Of a stretch of 44,278 nucleotides of DNA, positions 1 to 44,278 are shown one piece after another. Location of the stretch: UHGV virus genome UHGV-0261880, one strand, 5' to 3'. The first letter of the stretch is position 1. The number at the start of each line of letters is the position of its first letter. Origin of the DNA: a virus. The translations under genes were made by a program, and so were the position numbers. Under the pieces are notes generated by a model that saw only the letters and a list, made by a program, of their open reading frames with translations, was not told the origin of the DNA and did no database searches.

Positions 1-2331
1 ATTATGCCTTGCTTCGTTGCCGAATGAAAACTCAGTTTTTAGCGCACTATTCCCCGTGTAGATTGCTTCTTCCGGTGCGGATAGCATAATCACCTCGCGG
101 TCGTGGCTTCCTTTGATAACAGAGATACTCTGCACAGAGCCGTCGCGCTTCTTGAGGATGATGGAGTGGTCATCGCCGGGGGTAAACGTAACCGGCTGTG
201 ACAGTGTCAGCGTAAGCCCATTAACGGCAACAACATAGCCATCCTGCGGCGCGATACGCGAGCCTTTGACCACACTGATTACGCCTCCCGGTGTAGCGAG
301 TGCCCCCTCTTCCGTAGCTTCGAACTCTACGACAACTTTACTTAATGCATTGCGCTGATAGCGACGCCACGCCAGCCAATATGCCTGTTGGTAGTTGCGC
401 ACGCCTTTTGACTCGTATTCCTCAGTGTTTGCGCCGAGTTCTTCCGGGATATAAATCGTTTCCTGTACGTTCGTATCCGGGTCGATGTACGAGAACGACA
501 GGCTATCGTAGGTTGTCGAATCGTTGAATGTGCGCGTCCATTTCTCCGTACCGGTAGTTTTACTGCGGTGGGTGAACACCATCTCAGGCCCAGCAACCGG
601 ACGGTCGAATCGCAGCATAATATCCGCGCCTTTACGATATGCGGTACAGAACACGGCTTCCGCTATAGTCTGAACGATGTCCTGCATCGTGGTGTCGTAG
701 TCGTCGAACGTGTAGCAGAACTGCCCTGCTAACTCGCTACCGAAATAGGACTCAATTTCTTCCTGCACGGCAAGCAACTTATCCATGTTTGCCGTTGTCA
801 GTTCCAGATTACCTACTGCAGGGTCACGAGCCAGTCGGATTAGCGATTGTACGGCTTGCGTGTTCGGGGTCATTACTGTATCGAATACCCCATTGCCTAG
901 ATATTTGTAGCACATCTCGGTTGCAATCATGCGCAGTTCCGGGTTGTCAATACTGGCGGCACGCGGTGTCTGTTTACGGGCGCAATGTACGGTAGTTCGG
1001 TTGCCGTAATGCGGGGTTGTGTCCAGAGACTGCCCGTACAGGTTGATGAATGTTATCTCATCACTTACGGTCCCGTCGTAACCCTTATCGAAATTCGTTA
1101 TACGGCGCATACGGGCGCGGAAACGAGATGCAGTAGGCAACTGCCCATAAATAGACGTGCCGACGTAGTCAGTATTATTGCCGGTAATTGTTGCCCGTAC
1201 CGTGTAGATATCGCTCAACGGGTTACGCCGAGAATCAATCATCTGGTACTGGAGTTCCACCGTTACGCTGGTGCGGTTATAACCGCCGTCGTATTTGTAG
1301 AGGCCGTTCTGCCCTGCGACGTTAACGAGCACCCGGTCAACTTCTCCGCGAACCATGTAATACCAGTCGGTAAGGGATACGTCATAGGTGTTGCTAGGGC
1401 CGATGAACGTATCTGAACGCTCTGTCAGGGCGTAAGTCTGCCCACTATTAAGATTGCCCCAGTTACCTATATTCCCGACGTACAACTGAACTTCGAAGTC
1501 GTCGACATATAAAACCTCAAACGAGCCGTTCAGGTTAGTGACGTCCTTAACGTCAAAATTGCTCAACACTGCGACGTCACCAACACTAAGAAACTCAGAA
1601 AAAGCCGAGTCACCAGACGGGTCATAGAGGTAGCCGGTGGTCGAAATACGTTTGGCGGTCCCACCGGCGCTTGGGTTAGCCCCAATGTCGTTTGGCGCTT
1701 TGAGCACAATACCGTCAACGTCGTCATTGGAGTACGTCACATAGAGCTTCTGGTCAATGACGTCGCCGATTTGTAGTTGTGGCGATGTGGTGTTGTTCGG
1801 TGACGTATACGGCGCATACACGGCAACAGAGGAACCAGTGATATCGCTTATCAGGGTGTCGCCTTCTGTGACACCATTTGCCTCAATATGCAGATGCCCG
1901 CGCCCCGCGTCATAGTACGAATACTCCAGCAAAGCACCAGTGGAGTTGAACGCCTTGTACGTCTGCATCAGGTCATTAGGGATTGTCTGTACAGTCCCAC
2001 AGATGTCATATGAGCGCTCGTAAGGGCGAGGCTTGTTGGATCGGTCTGTGAGGCTATTATTCGGCGACGTTGTCTGGTAGTTAGTCGCCGTGTAGTTGGC
2101 ATTAGGTGTCTTGTTAAGGCCAAATAACTTGGCAATTGGCTTAAGGATAAAACCGAATACACTCCCGATAGCTTTGCCAATGCCACCACCTGACCCCTCA
2201 ATAATGTGGTACACAGCGTCTTCGTCTTTAAGCGCTTCGAAGTCGTCTGTAACATCAGTATCATCGCCGATCTCGCCGAGATAGACGCGCACAGGTACAC
2301 CGTCAGGAATACGGTTAACAACAAACTCCAT
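1..2331 (-). CDS. Tail tip / host-specificity fibre protein (J-like), N-terminal part; 3' end lies beyond the left window edge
   Basis: Minus-strand frame opens at ATG ~2331 (alternative TTG ~2403 preceded by GGAGA) and translates MEFVVNRIPDGVPVRVYLGEIGDD... with no stop for at least ~270 codons; absent from ORF track because its stop is outside the window; sits directly downstream of the K-like gene. Continuity to position 1 was not fully verified. Confidence 0.5.
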   Translation of the reverse strand, partial: MEFVVNRIPDGVPVRVYLGEIGDDTDVTDDFEALKDEDAVYHIIEGSGGGIGKAIGSVFGFILKPIAKLFGLNKTPNANYTATNYQTTSPNNSLTDRSNKPRPYERSYDICGTVQTIPNDLMQTYKAFNSTGALLEYSYYDAGRGHLHIEANGVTEGDTLISDITGSSVAVYAPYTSPNNTTSPQLQIGDVIDQKLYVTYSNDDVDGIVLKAPNDIGANPSAGGTAKRISTTGYLYDPSGDSAFSEFLSVGDVAVLSNFDVKDVTNLNGSFEVLYVDDFEVQLYVGNIGNWGNLNSGQTYALTERSDTFIGPSNTYDVSLTDWYYMVRGEVDRVLVNVAGQNGLYKYDGGYNRTSVTVELQYQMIDSRRNPLSDIYTVRATITGNNTDYVGTSIYGQLPTASRFRARMRRITNFDKGYDGTVSDEITFINLYGQSLDTTPHYGNRTTVHCARKQTPRAASIDNPELRMIATEMCYKYLGNGVFDTVMTPNTQAVQSLIRLARDPAVGNLELTTANMDKLLAVQEEIESYFGSELAGQFCYTFDDYDTTMQDIVQTIAEAVFCTAYRKGADIMLRFDRPVAGPEMVFTHRSKTTGTEKWTRTFNDSTTYDSLSFSYIDPDTNVQETIYIPEELGANTEEYESKGVRNYQQAYWLAWRRYQRNALSKVVVEFEATEEGALATPGGVISVVKGSRIAPQDGYVVAVNGLTLTLSQPVTFTPGDDHSIILKKRDGSVQSISVIKGSHDREVIMLSAPEEAIYTGNSALKTEFSFGNEARHN

Positions 2332-2393
2332 CGGCGTCCCGACGTGTTTTGTACGGTCGAAAGCGCCGTCGGCGTTTCGCGTGTAGTGCAGGA

Positions 2394-2759
2394 TTATCGC
2401 CAAAATTCAATCTCCGTGTACGTGTCTCTGAGGTCCGCCAGCCTGTCAAGCCGTACCTGACGTGACGCAAGCTCGCAATGGCTGACCATCCCGTCGAAGT
2501 AGACTCCTGCGTGCCACACGATACGACCGCCACGGCGATACCCCATAAGCACCGCGCAGAAGTTTTCAGGCTTATCAATTTTCGTAAGCCCCTTCGTGTC
2601 CCGGCGGCCTTCGTCAAACGCTTCGTTAATCGCCGTTGGGCTTGTAACGTCGAACGCCGGTGTTTCTAACCCGGCATCCGCCCGCACAATTCGCACATGA
2701 TGCCAGCAATTGCGCTTGCGAAAGTCGTAAGGTATGCCCGTGTAGTCGTTAATGTTCAT
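2394..2759 (-). CDS. Tail assembly protein, NlpC/P60-type peptidase (lambda K-like)
   Basis: 121 aa; Cys in NCWHH and downstream His in WHAGVY resemble the NlpC/P60 Cys-His pair; position between minor tail proteins and J-like gene. Confidence 0.55.
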   Translation of the reverse strand: MNINDYTGIPYDFRKRNCWHHVRIVRADAGLETPAFDVTSPTAINEAFDEGRRDTKGLTKIDKPENFCAVLMGYRRGGRIVWHAGVYFDGMVSHCELASRQVRLDRLADLRDTYTEIEFWR

Positions 2760-3286: not shown

Positions 3287-3768
3287 ATTCGTGGAAACGT
3301 TGATTGCGCGGTTCCGTAGGCTTTAAGGAAACACCCCAGCCCGTCACCATAGCAACCATACAAATCGGGCAGATTGTTAACAAGGCACTGATTCTCGAGG
3401 TCCTGGAACGGCGATTTCTCAGCGGTTGCCGTGAAAGTAATTGTCCAGTTAATGCCATCTTCTGTGGACTCTGCGATGGTTGACGTGATAGTTACCTGAT
3501 AATCCTGTATGCCCATGCCGAAGTCGTGCGCCATCCAGAAACTTGACGCACCACCATCGACTTTCTCAAGGAACGACAGAAACGCCTGTCGTCCAAGCGC
3601 TGAGGTAATCAGGGTTACACTTATCGGGAACACGTCGTAATACGTGTCACGGCCCTGACGCACCCCGCCACCTGCTAAATCAACGCTCCAGACGTTGTTG
3701 CGTCTGGTCATTGAGTAGCCTTTCGATACCACCGGCTTAAGTCTACGTGGGAAATATAAGTCGCTCAT
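3268..3768 (-). CDS. Minor tail protein (M-like position)
   Basis: 166 aa ORF immediately downstream of tape measure (start abuts the tape-measure stop); call by synteny. Confidence 0.45.
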   Translation of the reverse strand: MSDLYFPRRLKPVVSKGYSMTRRNNVWSVDLAGGGVRQGRDTYYDVFPISVTLITSALGRQAFLSFLEKVDGGASSFWMAHDFGMGIQDYQVTITSTIAESTEDGINWTITFTATAEKSPFQDLENQCLVNNLPDLYGCYGDGLGCFLKAYGTAQSTFPRIWDPMQ

Positions 3769-6095
3769 TACTTGAACCCCGGCGCGTTTCTTGTGGCCTT
3801 GCGGGCCTTGCTAATCTTGCTGTTGCTGTTCTGCAAAGATGCGGCAACTTGCTCCTCGATGATAATACGCAGACGGCCTTCATCATCTTGCTCAGTGGAT
3901 ACGTTGCCGATTTGAGAACTCGTGTTGTTTACGATAGTAACATTAGATGGCCCGGAAGAAGACCCGTTTTGCCCCATAATTTCTTTCATCTGCTGTGCGG
4001 TGCGAACACGCGACGCACCAGCTGGCATGATAACTTCTGGTTTACCACGTTCTGCGATGGTGGAAGCCTGCCCAGCGGACAACTGACCGCCCTGCTCACG
4101 CGCCGAGCGGATTTTGGCGATATTAGCCAGCCCCGCGGCAACGGCAGTAGCCGCGGCAACCGGCGCCAGGAATGGGCCGACAACAGGGATGGCAGCCGTT
4201 GACTTATATGCCTCGATAGCTGATGTGTACGTGGCGATAGTTGCCTGCGCAATAGCAAACGCTTTATACGCGGTGGACGCCTCGCCAAATGCGGTTTTGG
4301 CATTAGCCGCCATGTCTCCGAAGGCATCTCCGGTGGCTTTGGCGCGCTTCATTGAATACTGCTCATCCAGGGCTAGGAGCGCCATCTGGTACTGTTCGGC
4401 GTTAATTATGCCGTCTGCCATGTATTTTGAGATGATATTCGCTTTTTGGGACTGTTGTATTTCCAGAAGCTCAAGCTCAGTAGCGTTCTGGCCCATAATC
4501 TGCGCCATGAAGTCGTCGCCTTTCTGCTGCTTTTCCTGGGCTTCTTTTCTTTTCTTATCCAGTTCTTCCTGTCGGGCCTGCTCGGCGGTGAGCATAATCT
4601 GCGTTTTGGCGTTTTCGTACTGCTGCTGGCTTATAGTTCCAGCGCGGTTGAACTCTTCAAGTTTCGCCAGTTTCTGCTCTTCTGCCGCTGTAATACGTGA
4701 AATTTCGTCTCCAGTTGTGCGGTCGACAGTAGCGAGGAAATCTTCCGCCGCTTTTTTCTGACGTTGTGCCGCCGTTTCTTCGCGTTTGGCTTGTGCCGCC
4801 AGGCGTTTCTCGTTCGATTTAGCCTCTCGGTCTGCCTTCGCTTTTTCGGTCGCGTCGATGCGAGCGATGTCCTGCTGCGCTTCCGTATCACGGGCGGCGT
4901 TATACGCGGCTATCTGTTCTTTGGTGACAGCTTCACGTTTAGCAAACGCCTGCTTATCCAGTTCAGCTTGCGCCCGGATGCGCTCACGGTCGCTTAAGAT
5001 GGCGATTTGCTGATTCTTGACGATAGCTTCGTTCTGTTCCTGGAACCTCTGCGTGGTTGAGTTAACGTTACGGCCGAGATTCTTTTGGGCCTCCGCCGCC
5101 GCGTTTGCCGACTTCTCCGCGTTCTCCAGTGCCGTGGCGTTCTTGTTGGCGTTGTCCGTCAGGCGGATAAGTTCCGGGTTCAACTGTTTTGTGTTACCGA
5201 GCCAGTCGGTAAACACATCGGCGATGCGACGGGCATTCTCGGCGGTTGGCTCTTTGTTAAACGCGCTCTGCGCCGCTATCATCTCCAGCGCCTGGTCACG
5301 GTTAACCCCGAACTTACTGCTAAGCTCTGCGATATTCTGCGCCAGCATGTTGACGCCTACGATGTTACCCTCGTAAGTGCCGCCGAGTTTTTCTAATGTG
5401 TCGCCTACATCCGCACCCTTAGAGACCAGTGCATCGTACTGGCTGATCGCCGACGCCGTGGAGGCTTTCCACGTTTCCCACGATTCAGCATCTTCACGAA
5501 CAGCTTTAGCGGTTTGCTGCGCGATAAGGTCCGCGTTAGCCTTAGCCAGGGCGAGTTGCGTTTCCGCGGCTTCGCGGCTAATTTGCGTAAGTTGAATAAG
5601 ACCGTCTGTCAGTTCGAGGGAGCCAGATGCCGTTTGCTGGAAAGTATCCTTTAACTGTTTCTGCGCGGCTTCGAGGTCTTTTGAACTACCTTCTGCTTCG
5701 GTTAGCGATTTGTACAGGACCCCGCCAACAGCCGACGCAAGAGCAATTACAGCCCCAAGCACCGCACCACCGGGGCCGAAAGCACCCGCAAGCTGCGAAC
5801 CTTGTTGCCCGATTGCTACGAATGCAGACGTACCGGATTGCAACTGGACTACCATGTCCTGCACCTGGAAGCCAACCTGCCCGGCAGCGTTACGGAACTT
5901 GGCAAAACCGTCGGACGCTGCTTTAGAGGTAGCGGAGTTTACTTTATTAACATCAGGCGTTAGTTTGTTTACTGCGGTATCCGCACGGTCTGCAGACGAT
6001 GCCATAGCGTCAAGCTGTTTGGCAGCTACGTCGGCACCTTCTGTTTTTACTCTGGCAATTAGGGAAGCCGTATCAGCCATCTTCTCTGCCCTCAA
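3768..6095 (-). CDS. Tail tape measure protein
   Basis: 775 aa, long Ala/Gln/Glu/Lys-rich coiled-coil-like middle, hydrophobic Gly/Ala-rich segments, position after G/T chaperones. Confidence 0.85.
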   Translation of the reverse strand: MRAEKMADTASLIARVKTEGADVAAKQLDAMASSADRADTAVNKLTPDVNKVNSATSKAASDGFAKFRNAAGQVGFQVQDMVVQLQSGTSAFVAIGQQGSQLAGAFGPGGAVLGAVIALASAVGGVLYKSLTEAEGSSKDLEAAQKQLKDTFQQTASGSLELTDGLIQLTQISREAAETQLALAKANADLIAQQTAKAVREDAESWETWKASTASAISQYDALVSKGADVGDTLEKLGGTYEGNIVGVNMLAQNIAELSSKFGVNRDQALEMIAAQSAFNKEPTAENARRIADVFTDWLGNTKQLNPELIRLTDNANKNATALENAEKSANAAAEAQKNLGRNVNSTTQRFQEQNEAIVKNQQIAILSDRERIRAQAELDKQAFAKREAVTKEQIAAYNAARDTEAQQDIARIDATEKAKADREAKSNEKRLAAQAKREETAAQRQKKAAEDFLATVDRTTGDEISRITAAEEQKLAKLEEFNRAGTISQQQYENAKTQIMLTAEQARQEELDKKRKEAQEKQQKGDDFMAQIMGQNATELELLEIQQSQKANIISKYMADGIINAEQYQMALLALDEQYSMKRAKATGDAFGDMAANAKTAFGEASTAYKAFAIAQATIATYTSAIEAYKSTAAIPVVGPFLAPVAAATAVAAGLANIAKIRSAREQGGQLSAGQASTIAERGKPEVIMPAGASRVRTAQQMKEIMGQNGSSSGPSNVTIVNNTSSQIGNVSTEQDDEGRLRIIIEEQVAASLQNSNSKISKARKATRNAPGFK

Positions 6096-6345
6096 ATATT
6101 CCGTCTAAGCCCATGATAACCTCGGCTTCGAACAAACTTATGCCGTAACCGGCGACATCACGAAACGCTACCAAATCTTGCCATTTGAGCGCATCGCGCG
6201 GGATTATAACGATAGTATCATCTGTTTCGCGCTGTAGGAATTTAATGGCACGGTATTTCTCGAACACGTCGATAAGAGAAACGGGGCATTCTGGCCCCGT
6301 CGTTTCTTTCATCTGCGGTTCTTTAATCACGCCCATTGCAATCAA
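6073..6345 (-). CDS. Tail assembly chaperone, frameshift-extension segment (T-like)
   Basis: Track ORF starts at a TTG; the same frame is open upstream across the stop of the 6435..6851 gene and is -1 relative to it. Confidence 0.45.
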   Translation of the reverse strand: MIAMGVIKEPQMKETTGPECPVSLIDVFEKYRAIKFLQRETDDTIVIIPRDALKWQDLVAFRDVAGYGISLFEAEVIMGLDGIFEGREDG

Positions 6346-6434
6346 AGCCGCCTGGTGGCCTGCCGCGATGTCGTCGAATTGCTTACGTTTCTGGCGGTCG
6401 ACAAAGCACCATTGCGCAAATTCATACAGCGCTT

Positions 6435-6851
6435 TTACTTTTCCGAGAGTTTCTCGCGGCTATCGGTGTGGTGTTTAACTACGGCTTCTGCCAGTCCGCT
6501 GTACTGGTCTAACAGGTTAGCCAGCGCCTCTTTGCTGAACGGTTCATCAAATGACCAACCGGTGACGATTTCCACAGCAAGCTGCTTGTTCAGGTCCATC
6601 ACCCGCCAGCCCTTCTCATCGTTATAGCGCGCCCAGTTATTCAGCGCCTCGCACTCTTTATCTAATGGCGCAAGTTCTTCCGTAAGGCGTCGAATTGCCG
6701 TTGTGTAGGCGCGGCCCGCACGAACGCCAGCATCACAGTCCGGGCCAATGACCTGCAACCATTCGCCGGAGTCTTTACCACTCGGCAGAAGGATAGGCAT
6801 TTTAGTACCGGCGGCGTGGCGGTCGGCAAAATAGAAATCAGAAAGTTTCAT
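6435..6851 (-). CDS. Tail assembly chaperone (G-like)
   Basis: 138 aa, immediately upstream of tape measure and followed by an overlapping -1 frame ORF, the conserved G/GT arrangement. Confidence 0.55.
   Translation of the reverse strand: MKLSDFYFADRHAAGTKMPILLPSGKDSGEWLQVIGPDCDAGVRAGRAYTTAIRRLTEELAPLDKECEALNNWARYNDEKGWRVMDLNKQLAVEIVTGWSFDEPFSKEALANLLDQYSGLAEAVVKHHTDSREKLSEK
6436..6446 (-). other. Candidate -1 programmed ribosomal frameshift site (CGGAAAAG) at the 3' end of the G-like chaperone gene
   Basis: Zero frame reads ...CTC TCG GAA AAG TAA; -1 frame reads ...GGA AAA GTA AAA... and stays open into the 6073..6345 ORF; heptamer resembles but is not identical to lambda G GGA AAG. Confidence 0.4.
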
Positions 6852-9614: not shown

Positions 9615-10109
9615 ATGATTATGGATTGGAATGAATTTTTCATATACGATTTAATTTCAGGAAGGATATTTAACAGAGTAACCCGGTCCGGGAGGGCTAA
9701 GGCTGGAGAGGAAGCAGGTACTGTCCAGCGAGACGGATATAGAAGGATATTTTTCCGTGGTAAATGGCATGCGGCGCACCGTATAGCTTGGGACTTAAAC
9801 AATCCTAACGATAAGCTAACCTCGTCAGATCAAATAGACCATCTAGACCATGACCGAATAAACAATAGACCGCTTAACTTAGCTAAAAAGTCCAATGCGG
9901 AAAACCATAAAAATATGTCAAAACAGCGTAATAATAAATCAGGAGTAACCGGAGTTTACTGGAATGCGAAAGAAAGGTTGTGGTACGCACAGATATTCAA
10001 CAATAACGTAAAAACACATATCGGGTGCTTTAAGACGCTACTAGATGCAGTTGCCGCGAGGAGAGTTGCTGAAAGAGATTTGGGGTTCCACGAGAACCAC
10101 GGTAAATAG
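9615..10109 (+). CDS. HNH homing endonuclease with C-terminal AP2-type DNA-binding domain
   Basis: 164 aa; HNH core HAAHRIAW...DHLDHDRINNR; C-terminal SGVTGVYWNAKERLWYAQI...GCFKTLLDAVAARRVAE is AP2-like; AT-rich relative to neighbours. Confidence 0.8.
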   Translation: MIMDWNEFFIYDLISGRIFNRVTRSGRAKAGEEAGTVQRDGYRRIFFRGKWHAAHRIAWDLNNPNDKLTSSDQIDHLDHDRINNRPLNLAKKSNAENHKNMSKQRNNKSGVTGVYWNAKERLWYAQIFNNNVKTHIGCFKTLLDAVAARRVAERDLGFHENHGK

Positions 10110-22554: not shown

Positions 22555-22811
22555 TCCCTGCTCTCCTCTTTAGCAATGCGTTGCTCTGTTTTAGTGATAC
22601 CGCGGCGCGTGAATAACACCGGGCTTGTCTTAACGTGCGTCATCAGACGGTTGTTATAAATTACGTGGCGTTCGCAATCAACGTCTTTGCTGTACTTCGC
22701 AATCGTCATTTCGTTGATGCCGGTTTGTCTGCAAGTCTCCGCCATCGTGCCAAATTCTTTAATCAGGTTCGGAATGCTGGTAATCATCCTACGAAATTCC
22801 TCGTTGTCCAC
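22551..22811 (-). CDS. Hypothetical protein, possible HTH
   Basis: 86 aa ORF in coupled early-gene array. Confidence 0.4.
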   Translation of the reverse strand: MDNEEFRRMITSIPNLIKEFGTMAETCRQTGINEMTIAKYSKDVDCERHVIYNNRLMTHVKTSPVLFTRRGITKTEQRIAKEESRE

Positions 22812-33345: not shown

Positions 33346-33735
33346 ATGAAATACGAAGATATGAGTGATTTTGAAATTAATTGTGCAGTGGCAGTCGCAT
33401 TAGATTTGAATGAACATTTGTTCTTTCCATCTGGCGTCGATGACTTTGATAGTGATACTAATGATTCAGATATGGGGCCGGTGTGGCAAACACGAATGCC
33501 GTTTGTTAAAGGTTTTAGACCATCTAATGGTAATTTATTCAGCCCGTGCAACAACCTAGATATTACGTGGCAAATTATGACTCAAAATCATATATCGATT
33601 GAATGCGTTACGGTTAACCGACATACGTTTACGTATAAGGCGTATCACTCGGAATCGTTCACCGAAAGTACGCACGAAAACCCTCTCCGCGCAGCTATGA
33701 TTGTCTTCCTTAAAATGCAGGAGACAAAGAAATGA
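33346..33735 (+). CDS. Hypothetical protein, AT-rich gene
   Basis: 129 aa; visibly lower GC (~38-40%) than flanking genes. Confidence 0.5.
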   Translation: MKYEDMSDFEINCAVAVALDLNEHLFFPSGVDDFDSDTNDSDMGPVWQTRMPFVKGFRPSNGNLFSPCNNLDITWQIMTQNHISIECVTVNRHTFTYKAYHSESFTESTHENPLRAAMIVFLKMQETKK

Positions 33736-39207: not shown

Positions 39208-39399
39208 ATGAAACACGAATATGACCGCAAACCAGCACGTGACATCGTACCAGGCGACATGATTTTCAACGTTAAAACCCGACAGCCGGTTGCCGTTGAT
39301 ACGGTGTACGTCGAGTCGAACGGTAAACTGGTTATCGAAGACGTAACTGGAAACGTTACGGCGTTCGGGCGTAAAGAGTTAGTTCTGGTGCTGAAATGA
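39208..39399 (+). CDS. Hypothetical protein
   Basis: 63 aa ORF between VRR-NUC and HNH genes. Confidence 0.4.
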   Translation: MKHEYDRKPARDIVPGDMIFNVKTRQPVAVDTVYVESNGKLVIEDVTGNVTAFGRKELVLVLK

Positions 39400-39893
39400 G
39401 TAAATTCAATAGAAGACCCGATATTGAGGAGGCGAAACGTCTTCTTAACTATGACCCCGAAACAGGTATATTTACACGAAAAGTAAGCATAAAAGGGAGA
39501 AATGCTGGGGAGGTAGCCGGAGGGCCAAACGACAAAGGATGCATAGTTATTACAGTCTCCGGTGTAAGAATAAAAGCCCACCATCTGGCATGGGCTTTCG
39601 TCTACGGGGAATATCACAATGGTGAGCTTGACCATAAAGACCGTAACAGGGCCAATAACGCCATAAATAATATAAGGCCCGCAACAAGGAGCCAGCAGAT
39701 TCAGAACCGCGACTGCACCTCGCATAACACCAGCGGCGCGATAGGGGTTTACCAAATACCATCGGGCAGGTGGCGCGCCAGAATAGGCGTCAATAACAGA
39801 TACATCCACCTTGGCTATTTTGACACTATAGAAGAAGCGTCGCGCGTATACCAAAGAGCCGCAGAAATATACTTCGGGGAGTTCAAGGCATGA
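39396..39893 (+). CDS. HNH homing endonuclease with AP2-type domain (second copy of this architecture)
   Basis: 165 aa; KAHHLAWAFVYGEY...DHKDRNRANN; C-terminal IGVYQIPSGRWRARIGVNNRYIHLGYFDTIEEASRVYQRAA is AP2-like. Confidence 0.75.
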   Translation: MSKFNRRPDIEEAKRLLNYDPETGIFTRKVSIKGRNAGEVAGGPNDKGCIVITVSGVRIKAHHLAWAFVYGEYHNGELDHKDRNRANNAINNIRPATRSQQIQNRDCTSHNTSGAIGVYQIPSGRWRARIGVNNRYIHLGYFDTIEEASRVYQRAAEIYFGEFKA

Positions 39894-41314
39894 GTAAGTT
39901 TAGGCGCAGGGAATATCAGAAAATAATGACGTCGTTTATGCTACAGCACCCACGTTGCAATATCTGGTGCGGTATGGGCGGCGGCAAGACCTCGTCAACG
40001 TTGTGGGTTCTCAATCGACTGTTCCGTAATGGGCAACTTAATGACGACGACCGAGTGTTAATTCTGGCTCCTTTACGTGTTGCGTCAGGTACGTGGCCCG
40101 CGGAACAGGCACGTTGGAACTTCCCTTGTCTGCGCGTCGTAGATGCGACTGGTTCAGAGAAGCGACGCATCGCGGCACTGGAATCAGACGCTAACGTGGT
40201 GTGCACGAACTACGAAGTTATCGAATGGCTTATCGACTACTACGGCAAAGACGACTGGCCTTTTACCGTTATCGTTGCCGACGAGAGCACGAAACTGAAA
40301 TCGTTCCGCAGCCGTTCAGGTGGAAGCAAGCGAGCAAAGGCGCTTAGCAAGGTTGCGTTCGGTAAGGTTAAGCGTTTCATCAACCTAACGGGTACGCCGT
40401 CCCCAAACGGACTCAAGGACTTGTGGGGGCAGAACTGGTTTATTGACGCTGGCGAGCGACTTGGGTCTTCATACACGGCGTTCACCGACCGCTGGTTTAA
40501 CTCGGTACAGAAGGGCAAATCGGCTATGGCGCGTGAGTACCACGCACGCCCTGGTGCGGATAATGAAATTCACCAGAAGATGAAGGACATCAGTCTCACG
40601 ATTGACGCTGCCGAGTGGTTCGGTTGCGAAGCGCCGATTATTGTACCGGTTGAAATAGACCTGCCGAAGAAAGCGCGTCAGGCTTACATAGATATGGAGG
40701 AGAAGTTATTCGCAGAGCTGGAAAGCGGAGAAGTTGAGGCGGCTAACGCTGCGGCGAAGACGTCGAAGTGTTTGCAGATTGCTTCCGGTGCCGTGTATGT
40801 TTCAGGCCCGGACGGCGAAGCAACCAAAGACTGGGAGAAAGTGCACGACACGAAACTGGATGCGCTGGAGTCCATTGTTGAGGAGTTACAGGGCGCTCCA
40901 CTGCTTGTGGCCTATCAGTTCAAGCACGAACTGGAGCGCATCCTTAAGCGATTCCCCCAAGCACAGGCGTTTGCGAAAGGCGCTAAGGGTAATAAGCAGA
41001 TGGAAGCGTGGAATCGTGGTGAAATCGAGATTTTATGTGTACACCCTGCATCAGCCGGGCATGGTTTGAATTTACAAGACGGCGGTCATCATCTGGCGTT
41101 CATCTCACAAGGCTGGAACCTTGAGCACTATTTGCAGGTTGTTGAGCGCATAGGTCCGGTCCGTCAGAAACAGGCGGGCCACGAGCGCCCGGTGTTCCTG
41201 TATCACATCGTCGCTAAAGACACGCTGGACGAGGTTGTCGCCGCGCGTACAGACGAAAAGAAATCGGTGCAGGAAGAGTTGCTTAATTATATGAAGAGAC
41301 GAGGTAAGAAATGA
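39890..41314 (+). CDS. SNF2/DEAD-like superfamily-2 helicase
   Basis: 474 aa; Walker A GMGGGKT; motif II VIVADESTKLK; C-terminal helicase-domain-like region. Confidence 0.8.
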   Translation: MSKFRRREYQKIMTSFMLQHPRCNIWCGMGGGKTSSTLWVLNRLFRNGQLNDDDRVLILAPLRVASGTWPAEQARWNFPCLRVVDATGSEKRRIAALESDANVVCTNYEVIEWLIDYYGKDDWPFTVIVADESTKLKSFRSRSGGSKRAKALSKVAFGKVKRFINLTGTPSPNGLKDLWGQNWFIDAGERLGSSYTAFTDRWFNSVQKGKSAMAREYHARPGADNEIHQKMKDISLTIDAAEWFGCEAPIIVPVEIDLPKKARQAYIDMEEKLFAELESGEVEAANAAAKTSKCLQIASGAVYVSGPDGEATKDWEKVHDTKLDALESIVEELQGAPLLVAYQFKHELERILKRFPQAQAFAKGAKGNKQMEAWNRGEIEILCVHPASAGHGLNLQDGGHHLAFISQGWNLEHYLQVVERIGPVRQKQAGHERPVFLYHIVAKDTLDEVVAARTDEKKSVQEELLNYMKRRGKK

Positions 41315-41826
41315 TGGATTGCGAGGAGTTACTACTTAAGGCGCATCTGCTGGCGCGTGGGTTTGACGCCGACCGTCTCCGGGTAGTCTTAGCCCCTGGC
41401 GTTGCCACATTCTACTTGTGGGGGTTTGACGGTAGGCTACGCGGATACCAGCATTACAAGCCACATGCTGAAAAGAACTGCAAGAATCCAAAGGATGCGC
41501 GGTATTTTACCAGAACAACAAGACCGTGTTTATGGGGGCTTGAGTATTTGCCGCGTAGCGGGACCGTATTTGTTACCGAAAGCATATTCAAAGCCGTAGC
41601 TTTGATGAATTGCGGGTTCAATGCAGTAAGCGCACTAGGGTCGAATATACCAGCTGACTTACGGCAGCAAATGTCACTTTTGCCGCATGAATGGGTGTGC
41701 GCCGGTGACAATGATAAAGCGGGCTTAAAGTTCAGCAAAACATTCACCAGAGGATTTGTATCTAACGACCTCGATGAACTTTGTGAAGAAGAAATAACGT
41801 ATCTTGCGAGGAAATTTACCAGATGA
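41311..41826 (+). CDS. Toprim-domain protein (primase-like catalytic core without obvious zinc-binding domain)
   Basis: 171 aa; VFVTESIFKAVAL (Glu) and VCAGDNDKAG (DxD) match the Toprim signature. Confidence 0.5.
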   Translation: MMDCEELLLKAHLLARGFDADRLRVVLAPGVATFYLWGFDGRLRGYQHYKPHAEKNCKNPKDARYFTRTTRPCLWGLEYLPRSGTVFVTESIFKAVALMNCGFNAVSALGSNIPADLRQQMSLLPHEWVCAGDNDKAGLKFSKTFTRGFVSNDLDELCEEEITYLARKFTR

Positions 41827-41960
41827 ACATCATAGCCCCAATTCCAGCATTGCAAAAACGTATCAAGGAACTTGAGGAAGAGGTTCTACGACTACGGCAA
41901 CAGAGAGATGCCGCTAATGCGCAACTGGCGTTTGTGCTGGAGAAGCTATCAGAAGAGTAG
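41823..41960 (+). CDS. Small coiled-coil peptide (45 aa), below cutoff
   Basis: ATGA overlap with Toprim gene; MNIIAPIPALQKRIKELEEEVLRLRQQRDAANAQLAFVLEKLSEE; followed by terminator. Confidence 0.35.
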   Translation: MNIIAPIPALQKRIKELEEEVLRLRQQRDAANAQLAFVLEKLSEE

Positions 41961-41964
41961 CGAA

Positions 41965-41984
41965 AAGGCCCCTAAAGGGGCCTT
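41965..41984. terminator. Terminator hairpin AAGGCCCC-TAAA-GGGGCCTT + AGTTTTATTT between convergent genes
   Basis: 8-bp GC stem; U-tract on plus strand; same stem sequence as hairpins at 9582, 10111 and 17251. Confidence 0.55.
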
Positions 41985-41992
41985 AGTTTTAT

Positions 41993-44113
41993 TTACCCAA
42001 TAACAGTCCCATCAGTAAGGCTTGTTGGCGGGGAACCAAATTTACGCACTAACTGATTTGATGAGTTTTTAAACAAATAGAATTTGCTACCAAATTCCAT
42101 GCATGGAATACCTGTTCCTGTGGTTGTAGCCAATCCGAGATTTGTTGCAATGAATGCCTTTCCATCGAAATTAATAATATTATTTACGTTATTTACCCCG
42201 TGGTAGTTTGAAATCGAACTAACCCAGTCTACAGCTGTAGTTTTTGGATTAGTAATGTTCAATGCATTTGCAGCTGCCGTCAGCGTGTCTATGCGCAGAT
42301 TGTCGATAGTTACTTTTCCGTAATTATCGATTATCCATGAAGTAGCTGGATTGCGTATATCGATGTTACGTCCTACAAACTCGCTAATGTTCTTTATTCT
42401 CGGAGCGGTTTTAATTCCGGTCAAGGTGCAAGTATAGTTCTCGACTTTGACGACCCCAAAGGTATCTCCTCCGTTAGTCGTGTTTATACTGAGAGCATTC
42501 TGCACGTTTTCACTTGTTACATTTAAAATTTTAGCATCAATTGCGCCAGAGTTCTCAATATTAACGTCAGTGTTAGCACCGTTTATGTACACACCATCGA
42601 GTGTAGCTTTACGAGTAAGTGGAGAGTTGCTCGGATACATGCTAATGATAAACCCCATCGTATTATGACGAACTGATGGGTCATCTTCATCCTCTACCGT
42701 ATTCTGGTGATAGATTCTTGTACCTTGCCCTATGTACACGTCATAGCTTCCAGATAGACGCATACCCCACTTGCCTTTCTTACTCCCGATATTGTTGCAA
42801 TATGCACCGAGAACAACCCCAGACGATATCTGGAATACAGGGCTGCCGTCAGAATTGTCTTCAGAGGTCATCAATATTGGCTCTCTCCAGCGGGATACCT
42901 GATATGACCCGCCAATTACCTTGAAGTTAGCGGTACTGTGGAAGGCCATGCCGTTACGGTCAGTGTCATAAGTGCGACAACGCGTCACCTGCACATCAGT
43001 ACAGAACTTAAACATTATCCCAGGTTGACCGCCACGAGAGCCATAAGCATTAACAACCGAGCAGTCAGTTAATTTAATGCGAGTGGCCTGGTGGAACCAG
43101 AAACCATTAAATGTTGACGTATCTACTGTTGTGTCCCACGTCACATTAGACTTATTACCATCAATAACAAGTCCATTTACGGTGATGTCATAATGCTCAG
43201 GGATACCTGCGTCATAAGTATACGCCTTACGGTTGGTTATCCCGGTGGAAATGCTTGGGTAGTGACCGGGTTTTAATTTCAGCGTACATCCGTAAGCATT
43301 AATTGTTGTACCGGGCTTAACAATTAAAGGTGTCCCGTCCCAATAAATTGTTCGTGCGGGGAAAGCAATCGTCGAGGCTCCTGAATTTAGCGCGGCCTTA
43401 ATGGCTGCCGTATGATCCCCAGCAGTTTCCATTGCTGGAGTAATGAAGCTCTCTACGCTGACGTGTGCACCATACCCACGATGCCCATTGCCCTGTGAAT
43501 ACCAGTTACTATCTGGCGCGCTACCCGGTGCGATGCTAACTGGGAATGTGGACGCCCCCTTATATGCATACCAATTCCCATCAGCAGCCTGGGCCAGGTC
43601 GTTCGGGCCTGACACTGAACCACCGGCAGCAAAAGTAACACGTCTGGTAGTAGCAGTTTTGGCGTAGTCACTGTAGACGGTACCGCCAAAACTGCTACCG
43701 ACTATCTTATCGCCGTTGCTTTCTAAATCGTTTCTCAAATCAGGGTCCGTCTGAGGTTTCCAATCCGCATTACCCACAGGGTTAAAACCTGCTGGAACCG
43801 TAACAGGCAGAGCACCGGCGTACGAGTACCACGTCTTGCTTACAGGGTCATACACCACTTTGTCACGGTCATTAACTGTTAACGTACCGCCGGTAGAAAA
43901 GTCCCACGACACAGGAGAAAATCCAGCGTCACGCAACACGGCGGGGAGCGTTTTTTGGGTCTGGCCTGTAACAGGGTTGGTCGCGTAATCGATATTGGTA
44001 CCCCCAGCAACCCCGCCGGATTTGCCGGTGATAACCTCGGCCTCGAAAATCTGGTGCTTCTTGGCGGTTTGTAAATCCGCCAGGCTTAAAACGTCACCAC
44101 ATCCGCTTGACAT
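41993..44113 (-). CDS. Tailspike / tail fibre with right-handed beta-helix (pectate-lyase-like) central region
   Basis: 706 aa; central segment rich in short repeated Asn/Gly/Thr/Val turns (VIDGNKSNVTWDTTVDTS...VQVTRCRTYDTDRNGMAFHS...) typical of beta-helix depolymerases; AAAGAGGA RBS. Confidence 0.7.
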   Translation of the reverse strand: MSSGCGDVLSLADLQTAKKHQIFEAEVITGKSGGVAGGTNIDYATNPVTGQTQKTLPAVLRDAGFSPVSWDFSTGGTLTVNDRDKVVYDPVSKTWYSYAGALPVTVPAGFNPVGNADWKPQTDPDLRNDLESNGDKIVGSSFGGTVYSDYAKTATTRRVTFAAGGSVSGPNDLAQAADGNWYAYKGASTFPVSIAPGSAPDSNWYSQGNGHRGYGAHVSVESFITPAMETAGDHTAAIKAALNSGASTIAFPARTIYWDGTPLIVKPGTTINAYGCTLKLKPGHYPSISTGITNRKAYTYDAGIPEHYDITVNGLVIDGNKSNVTWDTTVDTSTFNGFWFHQATRIKLTDCSVVNAYGSRGGQPGIMFKFCTDVQVTRCRTYDTDRNGMAFHSTANFKVIGGSYQVSRWREPILMTSEDNSDGSPVFQISSGVVLGAYCNNIGSKKGKWGMRLSGSYDVYIGQGTRIYHQNTVEDEDDPSVRHNTMGFIISMYPSNSPLTRKATLDGVYINGANTDVNIENSGAIDAKILNVTSENVQNALSINTTNGGDTFGVVKVENYTCTLTGIKTAPRIKNISEFVGRNIDIRNPATSWIIDNYGKVTIDNLRIDTLTAAANALNITNPKTTAVDWVSSISNYHGVNNVNNIINFDGKAFIATNLGLATTTGTGIPCMEFGSKFYLFKNSSNQLVRKFGSPPTSLTDGTVIG

Positions 44114-44125
44114 ATAGAGTCCTCT

Positions 44126-44278
44126 TTAATTAAAGCCATTGCTGAATCCGTCGGAGAAACCGCTGCCGTATGGCGCGACGCCGTCGTATTTGTAGAATCC
44201 GTCGTCATAGTTGTAACCAGTAATCCTGACCGTGCGGTCGTCGCCCGGGTCGATTGAAGAAACAACTATCTTCTGAGC
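44126..44278 (-). CDS. 3' end of a minus-strand gene that starts beyond the right window edge (tail-fibre-like Gly/Tyr/Asp-rich C-terminus)
   Basis: Open minus frame ending in TAA just upstream of the tailspike RBS; translates ...VRITGYNYDDGFYKYDGVAPYGSGFSDGFSNGFN. Confidence 0.4.
   Translation of the reverse strand, partial: AQKIVVSSIDPGDDRTVRITGYNYDDGFYKYDGVAPYGSGFSDGFSNGFN

Follow-up and report, generated by a model that had tools for sequence, protein, structure and literature searches.

The virus genome UHGV-0261880, the whole of which (44,278 nucleotides, nt) is called here the window, carries close to its right edge a tailspike gene on the minus strand (41993..44113). The gene is complete, with an ATG start, 706 codons and a stop codon at 41993-41995. 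Taken together, our results very probably describe a complete, permuted map of a Kagunavirus, a group of small Escherichia coli (E. coli) siphoviruses of the Guernseyvirinae, whose modular tailspike has acquired a glycan-binding and presumably glycan-cleaving beta-helix. Gene structure, continuity of the map across its junction, boundaries of the mosaic, predicted fold and distribution of the module were established directly. The original prediction had placed at the right edge of the window a beta-helix tailspike and a second, fibre-like gene, separated by the whole window from a J-like gene at the left edge. The tailspike is borne out by the 706-codon open reading frame (ORF) and by an AlphaFold2 model, for which Foldseek returned beta-helix proteins, and the tailspike, the right-edge frame and the J-like gene do share the minus strand, as had been stated; the second fibre gene has to be abandoned.

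The J-like gene and the topology of the map

The supposed second gene (44126..44278, minus strand) consists of only 50 codons and a stop, and ends in ...YKYDGVAPYGSGFSDGFSNGFN / ...GYNYDDGFYKYDGVAPYGSGFSDGFSNGFN; its translation is rich in Gly, Tyr and Phe, in keeping with the Gly/Tyr-rich character previously attributed to it. At the opposite edge, 802 open codons on the same strand (1..2403), the 5' part of the J-like gene, run off the left end and terminate in ...TEFSFGNEARHN at window base 1. Joining the end of the window to its start gives one ORF, base 44278 being in phase with the left-edge frame with zero gap. Translation could start at TTG 2403, which has a GGAG 8 nt upstream and gives a total of 851 amino acids (aa), or at ATG 2331 (827 aa); in a related 43.8-kb Kagunavirus contig, gene calling places a single 851-aa gene here. 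The joined protein is 96.3% identical over 828 aa, with 0 gaps, to gp34 of phage phiWAO78-1 ('putative tail fiber protein', 829 aa), and this alignment includes the junction residues ...NEARHN followed by AQKIVVSSIDPGDD... (AQKIVV after the join). A gap-free DNA alignment of 1551 nt with phiWAO78-1 also spans the junction. These data indicate that the right-edge fragment corresponds to the C-terminal 50 residues of the J-like protein. Taken alone, its Gly/Tyr/Phe-rich translation does resemble a tail fibre, and might belong to a separate second fibre gene, with unrelated genes lying between the window ends; we regard this as hardly conceivable, given the in-frame join, the collinearity with gp34, the DNA alignment that crosses the junction and the one gene found there in the related contig.

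A whole-genome comparison showed that the window and phiWAO78-1 are collinear round the full circle, window base 1 corresponding to phiWAO78-1 base 22634 and window base 44278 to base 22635. No unrelated genes appear to lie between the right-edge and left-edge genes, the two ends falling on adjacent bases of the reference. On the grounds of the joined frame, the gap-free match and these adjacent bases, the window appears to be a complete Kagunavirus genome of 44,278 bp, circularly permuted, with the map opened inside the J-like gene. The proposal that the window ends would be contiguous on a circular map is therefore upheld, as they abut base to base, but the window spans the whole genome rather than most of it, and the separation of the tailspike from the J-like gene is an artefact of the opening point of the circular map. 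Guernseyvirinae phages use headful packaging, and their genomes assemble into circular maps, which would account for a break point within a gene. The flanks of the tailspike gene and the first 25 kb show about 88-91% DNA identity, with 75-85% coverage, to Kagunavirus phages. No tRNA genes were found in the window when these were looked for.

With lambda gpJ, the J-like protein shares its place after the tape measure, DUF1833 and minor tail genes, and weak matches to FNIII-A_GpJ and Phage-tail_3; it differs in having 827-851 aa, as compared to 1132 aa of lambda J, and in that both Pfam matches stay below the gathering score (21.1 bits with a cut-off of 27, and 19 with a cut-off of 23, respectively). 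The label is based on synteny (tape measure, DUF1833 protein and small tail proteins upstream), on the match to PHROG 469 ('tail protein', E = 1.9e-247) and on published usage, the central fibre gene beside Kagunavirus tailspikes being termed 'J-like' (PMC11990801). Since the right-edge fragment is read as the 3' end of this gene, the tailspike and J-like genes are immediate neighbours, as in other Kagunaviruses, with a spacer of 12 nt (44114..44125, minus strand) between the J stop and the tailspike ATG. The sequence reads …TTTAAT TAA AGAGGACTCTAT ATG… and contains a Shine-Dalgarno-like AAGAGGA, which starts on the final A of the J stop codon and extends into the spacer.

Mosaic structure of the tailspike and distribution of its beta-helix module

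The tailspike is a three-part mosaic, with a beta-helix module that was very probably gained by horizontal exchange. The parts, all on the minus strand, are a Kagunavirus-specific N-terminal anchor (aa 1-128, 43728..44113), delimited by its identity to tailspikes of the genus and by the limit of DNA homology; a linker helix followed by a small intermediate beta domain (aa 129-220, 43454..43727), delimited by identities, guanine-cytosine (GC) content, PHROG matches and the strands of the model; and a putative right-handed parallel beta-helix with a C-terminal beta domain (aa 221-706, 41996..43453), which would be the receptor-binding and presumed catalytic module. As regards annotation, aa 1-147 match PHROG tail spike families, aa 77-112 match PF18668 (Tail_spike_N) with 33.4 bits, above the gathering cut-off of 25, and the homologous genes in relatives are annotated as tailspikes.

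The anchor is 85-90% identical, over aa 1 to about 139/148, to more than 25 Kagunavirus tailspike records among the matches listed. DNA homology to phiWAO78-1 (about 91%) runs from the J-like gene to 43728, at tailspike codon ~128, where it stops, and sets in again at 41995, on the final base of the stop codon. The exchanged cassette thus measures 1,732 bases (43727 to 41996) with no phiWAO78-1 DNA match. The break sits in DPDLRNDLES, which is modelled as a helix (residues 123-132), and the family alignment shows an LRxEL helix at the equivalent place, ahead of a GDK(I/L)VGSS motif that proteins with very different N-termini have in common. Published delineations place the Kagunavirus tailspike anchors at 124-133 aa (PMC10408124 Table S1), in agreement with a break at codon ~129. 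Among the closest known systems are the Kagunavirus tailspikes, such as phiWAO78-1 gp35 (O78-assigned), the K1H endosialidase and those of BASEL Bas70-76 (O16), which share with the window tailspike the anchor (85-90% aa identity), its boundary at about aa 124-133, the anchor plus beta-helix architecture and the position directly downstream of the J-like gene and ahead of convergent replication genes. What sets the window tailspike apart from phiWAO78-1 is its receptor module (aa 129-706), which has no detectable DNA similarity to that phage.

The base composition is in line with this mosaic. The GC content is 53% in the anchor plus intermediate domain and 43.7% in the beta-helix segment, with a genome value of 50.8%; the DNA of aa 129-220, taken separately, has 53.6% GC and is therefore backbone-like. 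The intermediate domain matches PHROG 22294 at aa 130-201 and has its model strands at residues 158-208. In all five backbones examined the beta-helix module has 42-44% GC, while the local GC content of the backbone varies from 43% (Kuttervirus Se-B) to 54.5%. The module is therefore taken to be mobile, and to have kept its own composition instead of converging on that of its host genomes. The Kuttervirus background is the best fit to this composition, being the only one that matches it (43%).

Identities to other carriers of the module were computed region by region (aa 1-128, aa 133-220 and aa 221-706). The anchor is 94-95% identical to two unannotated proteins from SRA assemblies (P0001 and P0002) and 15-29% identical to all other module carriers, and the intermediate region shows 48-70% identity to the latter. 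P0002 is encoded on a 43.8-kb contig with the Kagunavirus gene order of the window, and represents an independent case of the same arrangement. Over the beta-helix, the identity is 92-93% to 695-aa tailspikes of P22-like (Lederbergvirus) E. coli prophages, which carry the P22 head-binding domain PF09008 and have the architecture of the HK620 and P22 tailspikes (for example WP_370610238.1 of E. coli ET479; 91% DNA identity over about 1.5 kb). A protein encoded on a 91-kb contig reaches 93% over the same region, a 793-aa protein of an epsilon15-like contig 88% and gp135 of Kuttervirus Se-B 85%. The N-terminus of the 793-aa protein is, we presume, of the epsilon15/phiV10 type, and its gene context (acyltransferase, holins, endolysin) is in line with the epsilon15-like label. 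Se-B gp135 occupies the TSP1 position of a four-spike cluster. It is 74% identical to the window tailspike over aa 40-706 (about 80% DNA identity over 1457 nt) and shares with it the small PF18668 domain and a module GC content that equals the Se-B background of 43%; it differs in the N-terminal attachment region, 29% identical over aa 1-128, and in its phage, a 158-kb myovirus whose four spikes form a branched complex.

The family is rare. Of 50,697 deposited phage records, those of Kuttervirus Se-B and Se-D alone cover most of the tailspike (94% of its length), the others matching at most 54% of it, mostly the anchor. When 1.84 billion cluster representatives were scanned exhaustively with HMMER, 40 matched at E <= 0.001 and 5 at E <= 1e-30. 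The beta-helix module is found behind at least five anchor types (Kagunavirus, Kuttervirus TSP1, P22-like head-binding, epsilon15-like and others). Conservation of anchors within a genus and exchange of receptor domains across genera have been described (PMC10408124), and the swapping of anchors and receptor modules beside the J-like gene is already known for Kagunavirus and for tailspikes generally (PMC10408124; PMC11990801). The novelty is limited to this particular module, previously undeposited in a Kagunavirus among the phage records searched.

Predicted fold, function and host glycan

The AlphaFold2 monomer model, built from an alignment of 23 sequences, has a mean predicted local distance difference test score (pLDDT) of 76, and most of its body, at pLDDT 80-94, is a long run of short strands. 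Foldseek matched the model to CBA120 TSP3, TSP1 and TSP2 and to the HK620 and P22 tailspikes; with the solved CBA120 TSP1 the similarity is at fold level only. The central domain (aa 221-706) is thus predicted to be a right-handed parallel beta-helix. The Asn/Gly/Thr richness noted earlier is confirmed, as a modest enrichment (N 8.8%, G 9.5% and T 11.3% of the beta-helix part) that is typical of beta-helix tailspikes. Against Pfam at E <= 1 the whole tailspike gave nothing besides PF18668. A profile of the family (20 sequences) searched against the PDB was discarded as a source of evidence, as it matched only N-terminal regions of phage tail proteins (P22-type, TSP-type and other), largely from other rows of the alignment.

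The anchor (aa 1-128) would fix the tailspike to the tail tip, followed by the linker helix and small domain (aa 129-220), and the beta-helix (aa 221-706) would bind a host surface polysaccharide and most likely cleave it; cleavage would give the phage access to the outer membrane and set its host range. In this scheme, the formation of a trimer on the tail tip, the enzymatic activity and O-antigen as substrate are what we infer. A polysaccharide depolymerase that sets host range, which had been suggested from the turns, is the most likely function in view of the modelled fold, the gene position and the relatives.

The substrate is most likely O-antigen, by analogy with the other carriers and the genus. 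Temperate phages of the P22-like or epsilon15-like kind account for most carriers of the beta-helix module. The tailspike gene of the epsilon15-like contig is followed by an acyltransferase gene (Acyl_transf_3 plus SGNH). In E. coli ET670, a P22-like prophage remnant at dacD (NZ_CP100930.1 1839092-1856076) contains a tailspike fragmented by the insertion sequences (IS) IS1 and IS3, and an acyltransferase gene adjoins the beta-helix fragment. An acyltransferase beside the tailspike is the arrangement of seroconverting O-antigen-specific phages, such as phiV10. In Kagunavirus the tailspike gene comes directly after the J-like gene, and the BASEL Kagunavirus isolates depend on O-antigen (PMC11990801). 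The temperate carriers, the two tailspike-acyltransferase loci and this dependence are the reasons why O-antigen is preferred over capsule. The module could instead be a polysaccharide lyase directed at an acidic capsule (K antigen), since the fold search gives lyases and epimerases scores as good as those of hydrolases; we hold this to be somewhat unlikely, because hydrolases of families GH28, GH110 and GH87 score equally well, P22-like and epsilon15-like temperate phages typically target O-antigen, and the acyltransferases are of the seroconversion type.

The motifs FCTD (373), DTDRNG (383-388) and SRWREP (407-412), and with them a number of further acidic residues, do not vary even in a homologue whose beta-helix is only 46% identical; the residues D309, D318, D350, D373, D385, E411, D419, D506, D516 and E520 are invariant in the family alignment. 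These motifs bear on whether the module might bind the glycan without any catalysis, as the presence of the non-enzymatic beta-helix adhesins PfbA, Vag8 and UpaB among the fold matches and the lack of an identified catalytic motif in the module would allow. The conservation of such acidic and basic motifs inside the helix makes a purely binding role improbable, as does the fact that O-antigen-specific tailspikes of this architecture are usually enzymes (PMC10408124).

In the search for the host glycan, the module was found in 3 of 5,426 complete E. coli genomes, all three of them frog-faeces isolates from Shantou; nothing relevant was found in the literature on these isolates. ET479 contains the intact P22-like prophage tailspike mentioned above. 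Its galF-gnd region (NZ_CP100950.1 1856829-1880707) holds a Wzx/Wzy cluster with wecB, glycosyltransferases, a flippase, manC with an internal stop and manB, and beyond gnd-ugd and a frameshifted wzzB there is an O9-family manC-rfbK-wzm-wzt locus, giving this strain two surface-glycan loci in all. The Wzx/Wzy cluster is common to 16 complete genomes, of which ET479 alone has the tailspike. ET670, with its IS-disrupted tailspike remnant, carries a different, rhamnose-type O cluster. As the prophage hosts give no consistent signal, no serogroup was assigned to the module. The receptor-binding protein (RBP) subtype assigned to O8 (at least 30% aa identity over the receptor-binding domain; PMC10408124) was considered and rejected: in a BLASTP comparison, G7C gp66 (RBP1) aligns over only 54 residues, in the small N-terminal domain (PF18668 region), with no similarity in the receptor domain. 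The beta-helix may embody an uncharacterised receptor specificity, possibly that of an endo-mannanase-type tailspike acting on an O8/O9-type O-antigen. We offer this as a long shot, the basis for a new specificity being the very small family, its spread over at least five tail architectures and its occurrence in E. coli and Salmonella phages, and the endo-mannanase being suggested by the O9-family polymannan locus of the only intact prophage host found. Endo-mannanase activity has reportedly been described biochemically for the old coliphage Omega8, for which we know of no sequence.

Several points weigh against a depolymerase acting on O-antigen. The model is a monomer, with low pLDDT at residues 1-60 and 123-156. 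The segment aa 221-706 has no sequence match in Pfam, PHROG or PDB, so that the activity is argued from the fold, and the best fold matches include epimerases, lyases and non-enzymatic adhesins (PfbA, Vag8), a range that leaves the chemistry unfixed. With the A-module of AlgE4 and other pectate-lyase-like beta-helix enzymes, for instance, there is 16% identity and no relation detectable from sequence, and the likeness says nothing on the substrate. The conserved acids D373, D385, E411, D419 and others are catalytic candidates only. Finally, the sole intact prophage host carries two candidate glycan loci, and the O-locus of ET670 is a different one.

Genomic neighbourhood and significance

The tailspike gene closes the tail module, directly after the J-like gene and on its strand, an order shared with phiWAO78-1 and with the related 43.8-kb Kagunavirus contig. 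Read along the minus strand, the tape measure comes first, followed by the minor tail proteins, the J-like gene (2403/2331..1, then 44278..44126), the 12-nt spacer, the tailspike (44113..41993) and a probable bidirectional terminator. The latter is a palindromic GC-rich hairpin at 41965..41984 (AAGGCCCC-TAAA-GGGGCCTT), preceded by an A-run and followed by a T-run, with a perfect 8-bp stem, a positive terminator scan and an RNA fold of -16.7 kcal/mol (z = -2.66). It is likely a bidirectional intrinsic terminator between the convergent replication (plus-strand) and tail (minus-strand) genes. The plus-strand genes past the hairpin encode a SNF2-type helicase (39890-41314), a Toprim protein (41311-41826) and a 45-aa ORF. 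Plus-strand ORFs within the tailspike gene (such as 42676-42924) were regarded as shadows of the long minus-strand ORF. The related contig (8154-9799, compared to window 39890-41960) has no gene at the position of the 171-aa Toprim gene of the window, a 74-aa ORF being followed directly by the SNF2 helicase; this small gene therefore seems variably present in Kagunavirus.

Other segments of the window differ from phiWAO78-1. The ORFs at 39396-39893 and 9615-10109, both on the plus strand, encode HNH_3 endonuclease domains, the former with an AP2 DNA-binding domain as well; as they lie in segments with no phiWAO78-1 DNA match, both are candidates for free-standing homing endonucleases. The related contig has the same 165-aa HNH/AP2 gene at the corresponding place. 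A stretch of 2.25 kb (4575-6828) gave no blastn match to phiWAO78-1, its flanks being about 87-89% identical; it takes in most of a 775-aa ORF in the tape-measure position (3768-6095; no Pfam match) and a tail assembly chaperone ORF (6435-6851, PF08748), and would be a second diverged or exchanged tail segment. A NinX-like ORF (33346-33735, plus strand; PF10765) lies in another segment absent from phiWAO78-1.

The main value of this analysis is a correction: what looked like two fibre genes at opposite ends of the window is one J-like gene split by linearisation, with the tailspike as its normal neighbour. The tailspike itself neatly illustrates how a receptor module is exchanged across families, which would not surprise a specialist; siphovirus, myovirus and podovirus tails take part in the exchange, the breakpoint is sharp and the compositional signature has stayed distinct from the backbone. 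Once its glycan is identified, this rare module could extend the schemes that predict the serogroups recognised by E. coli phages.

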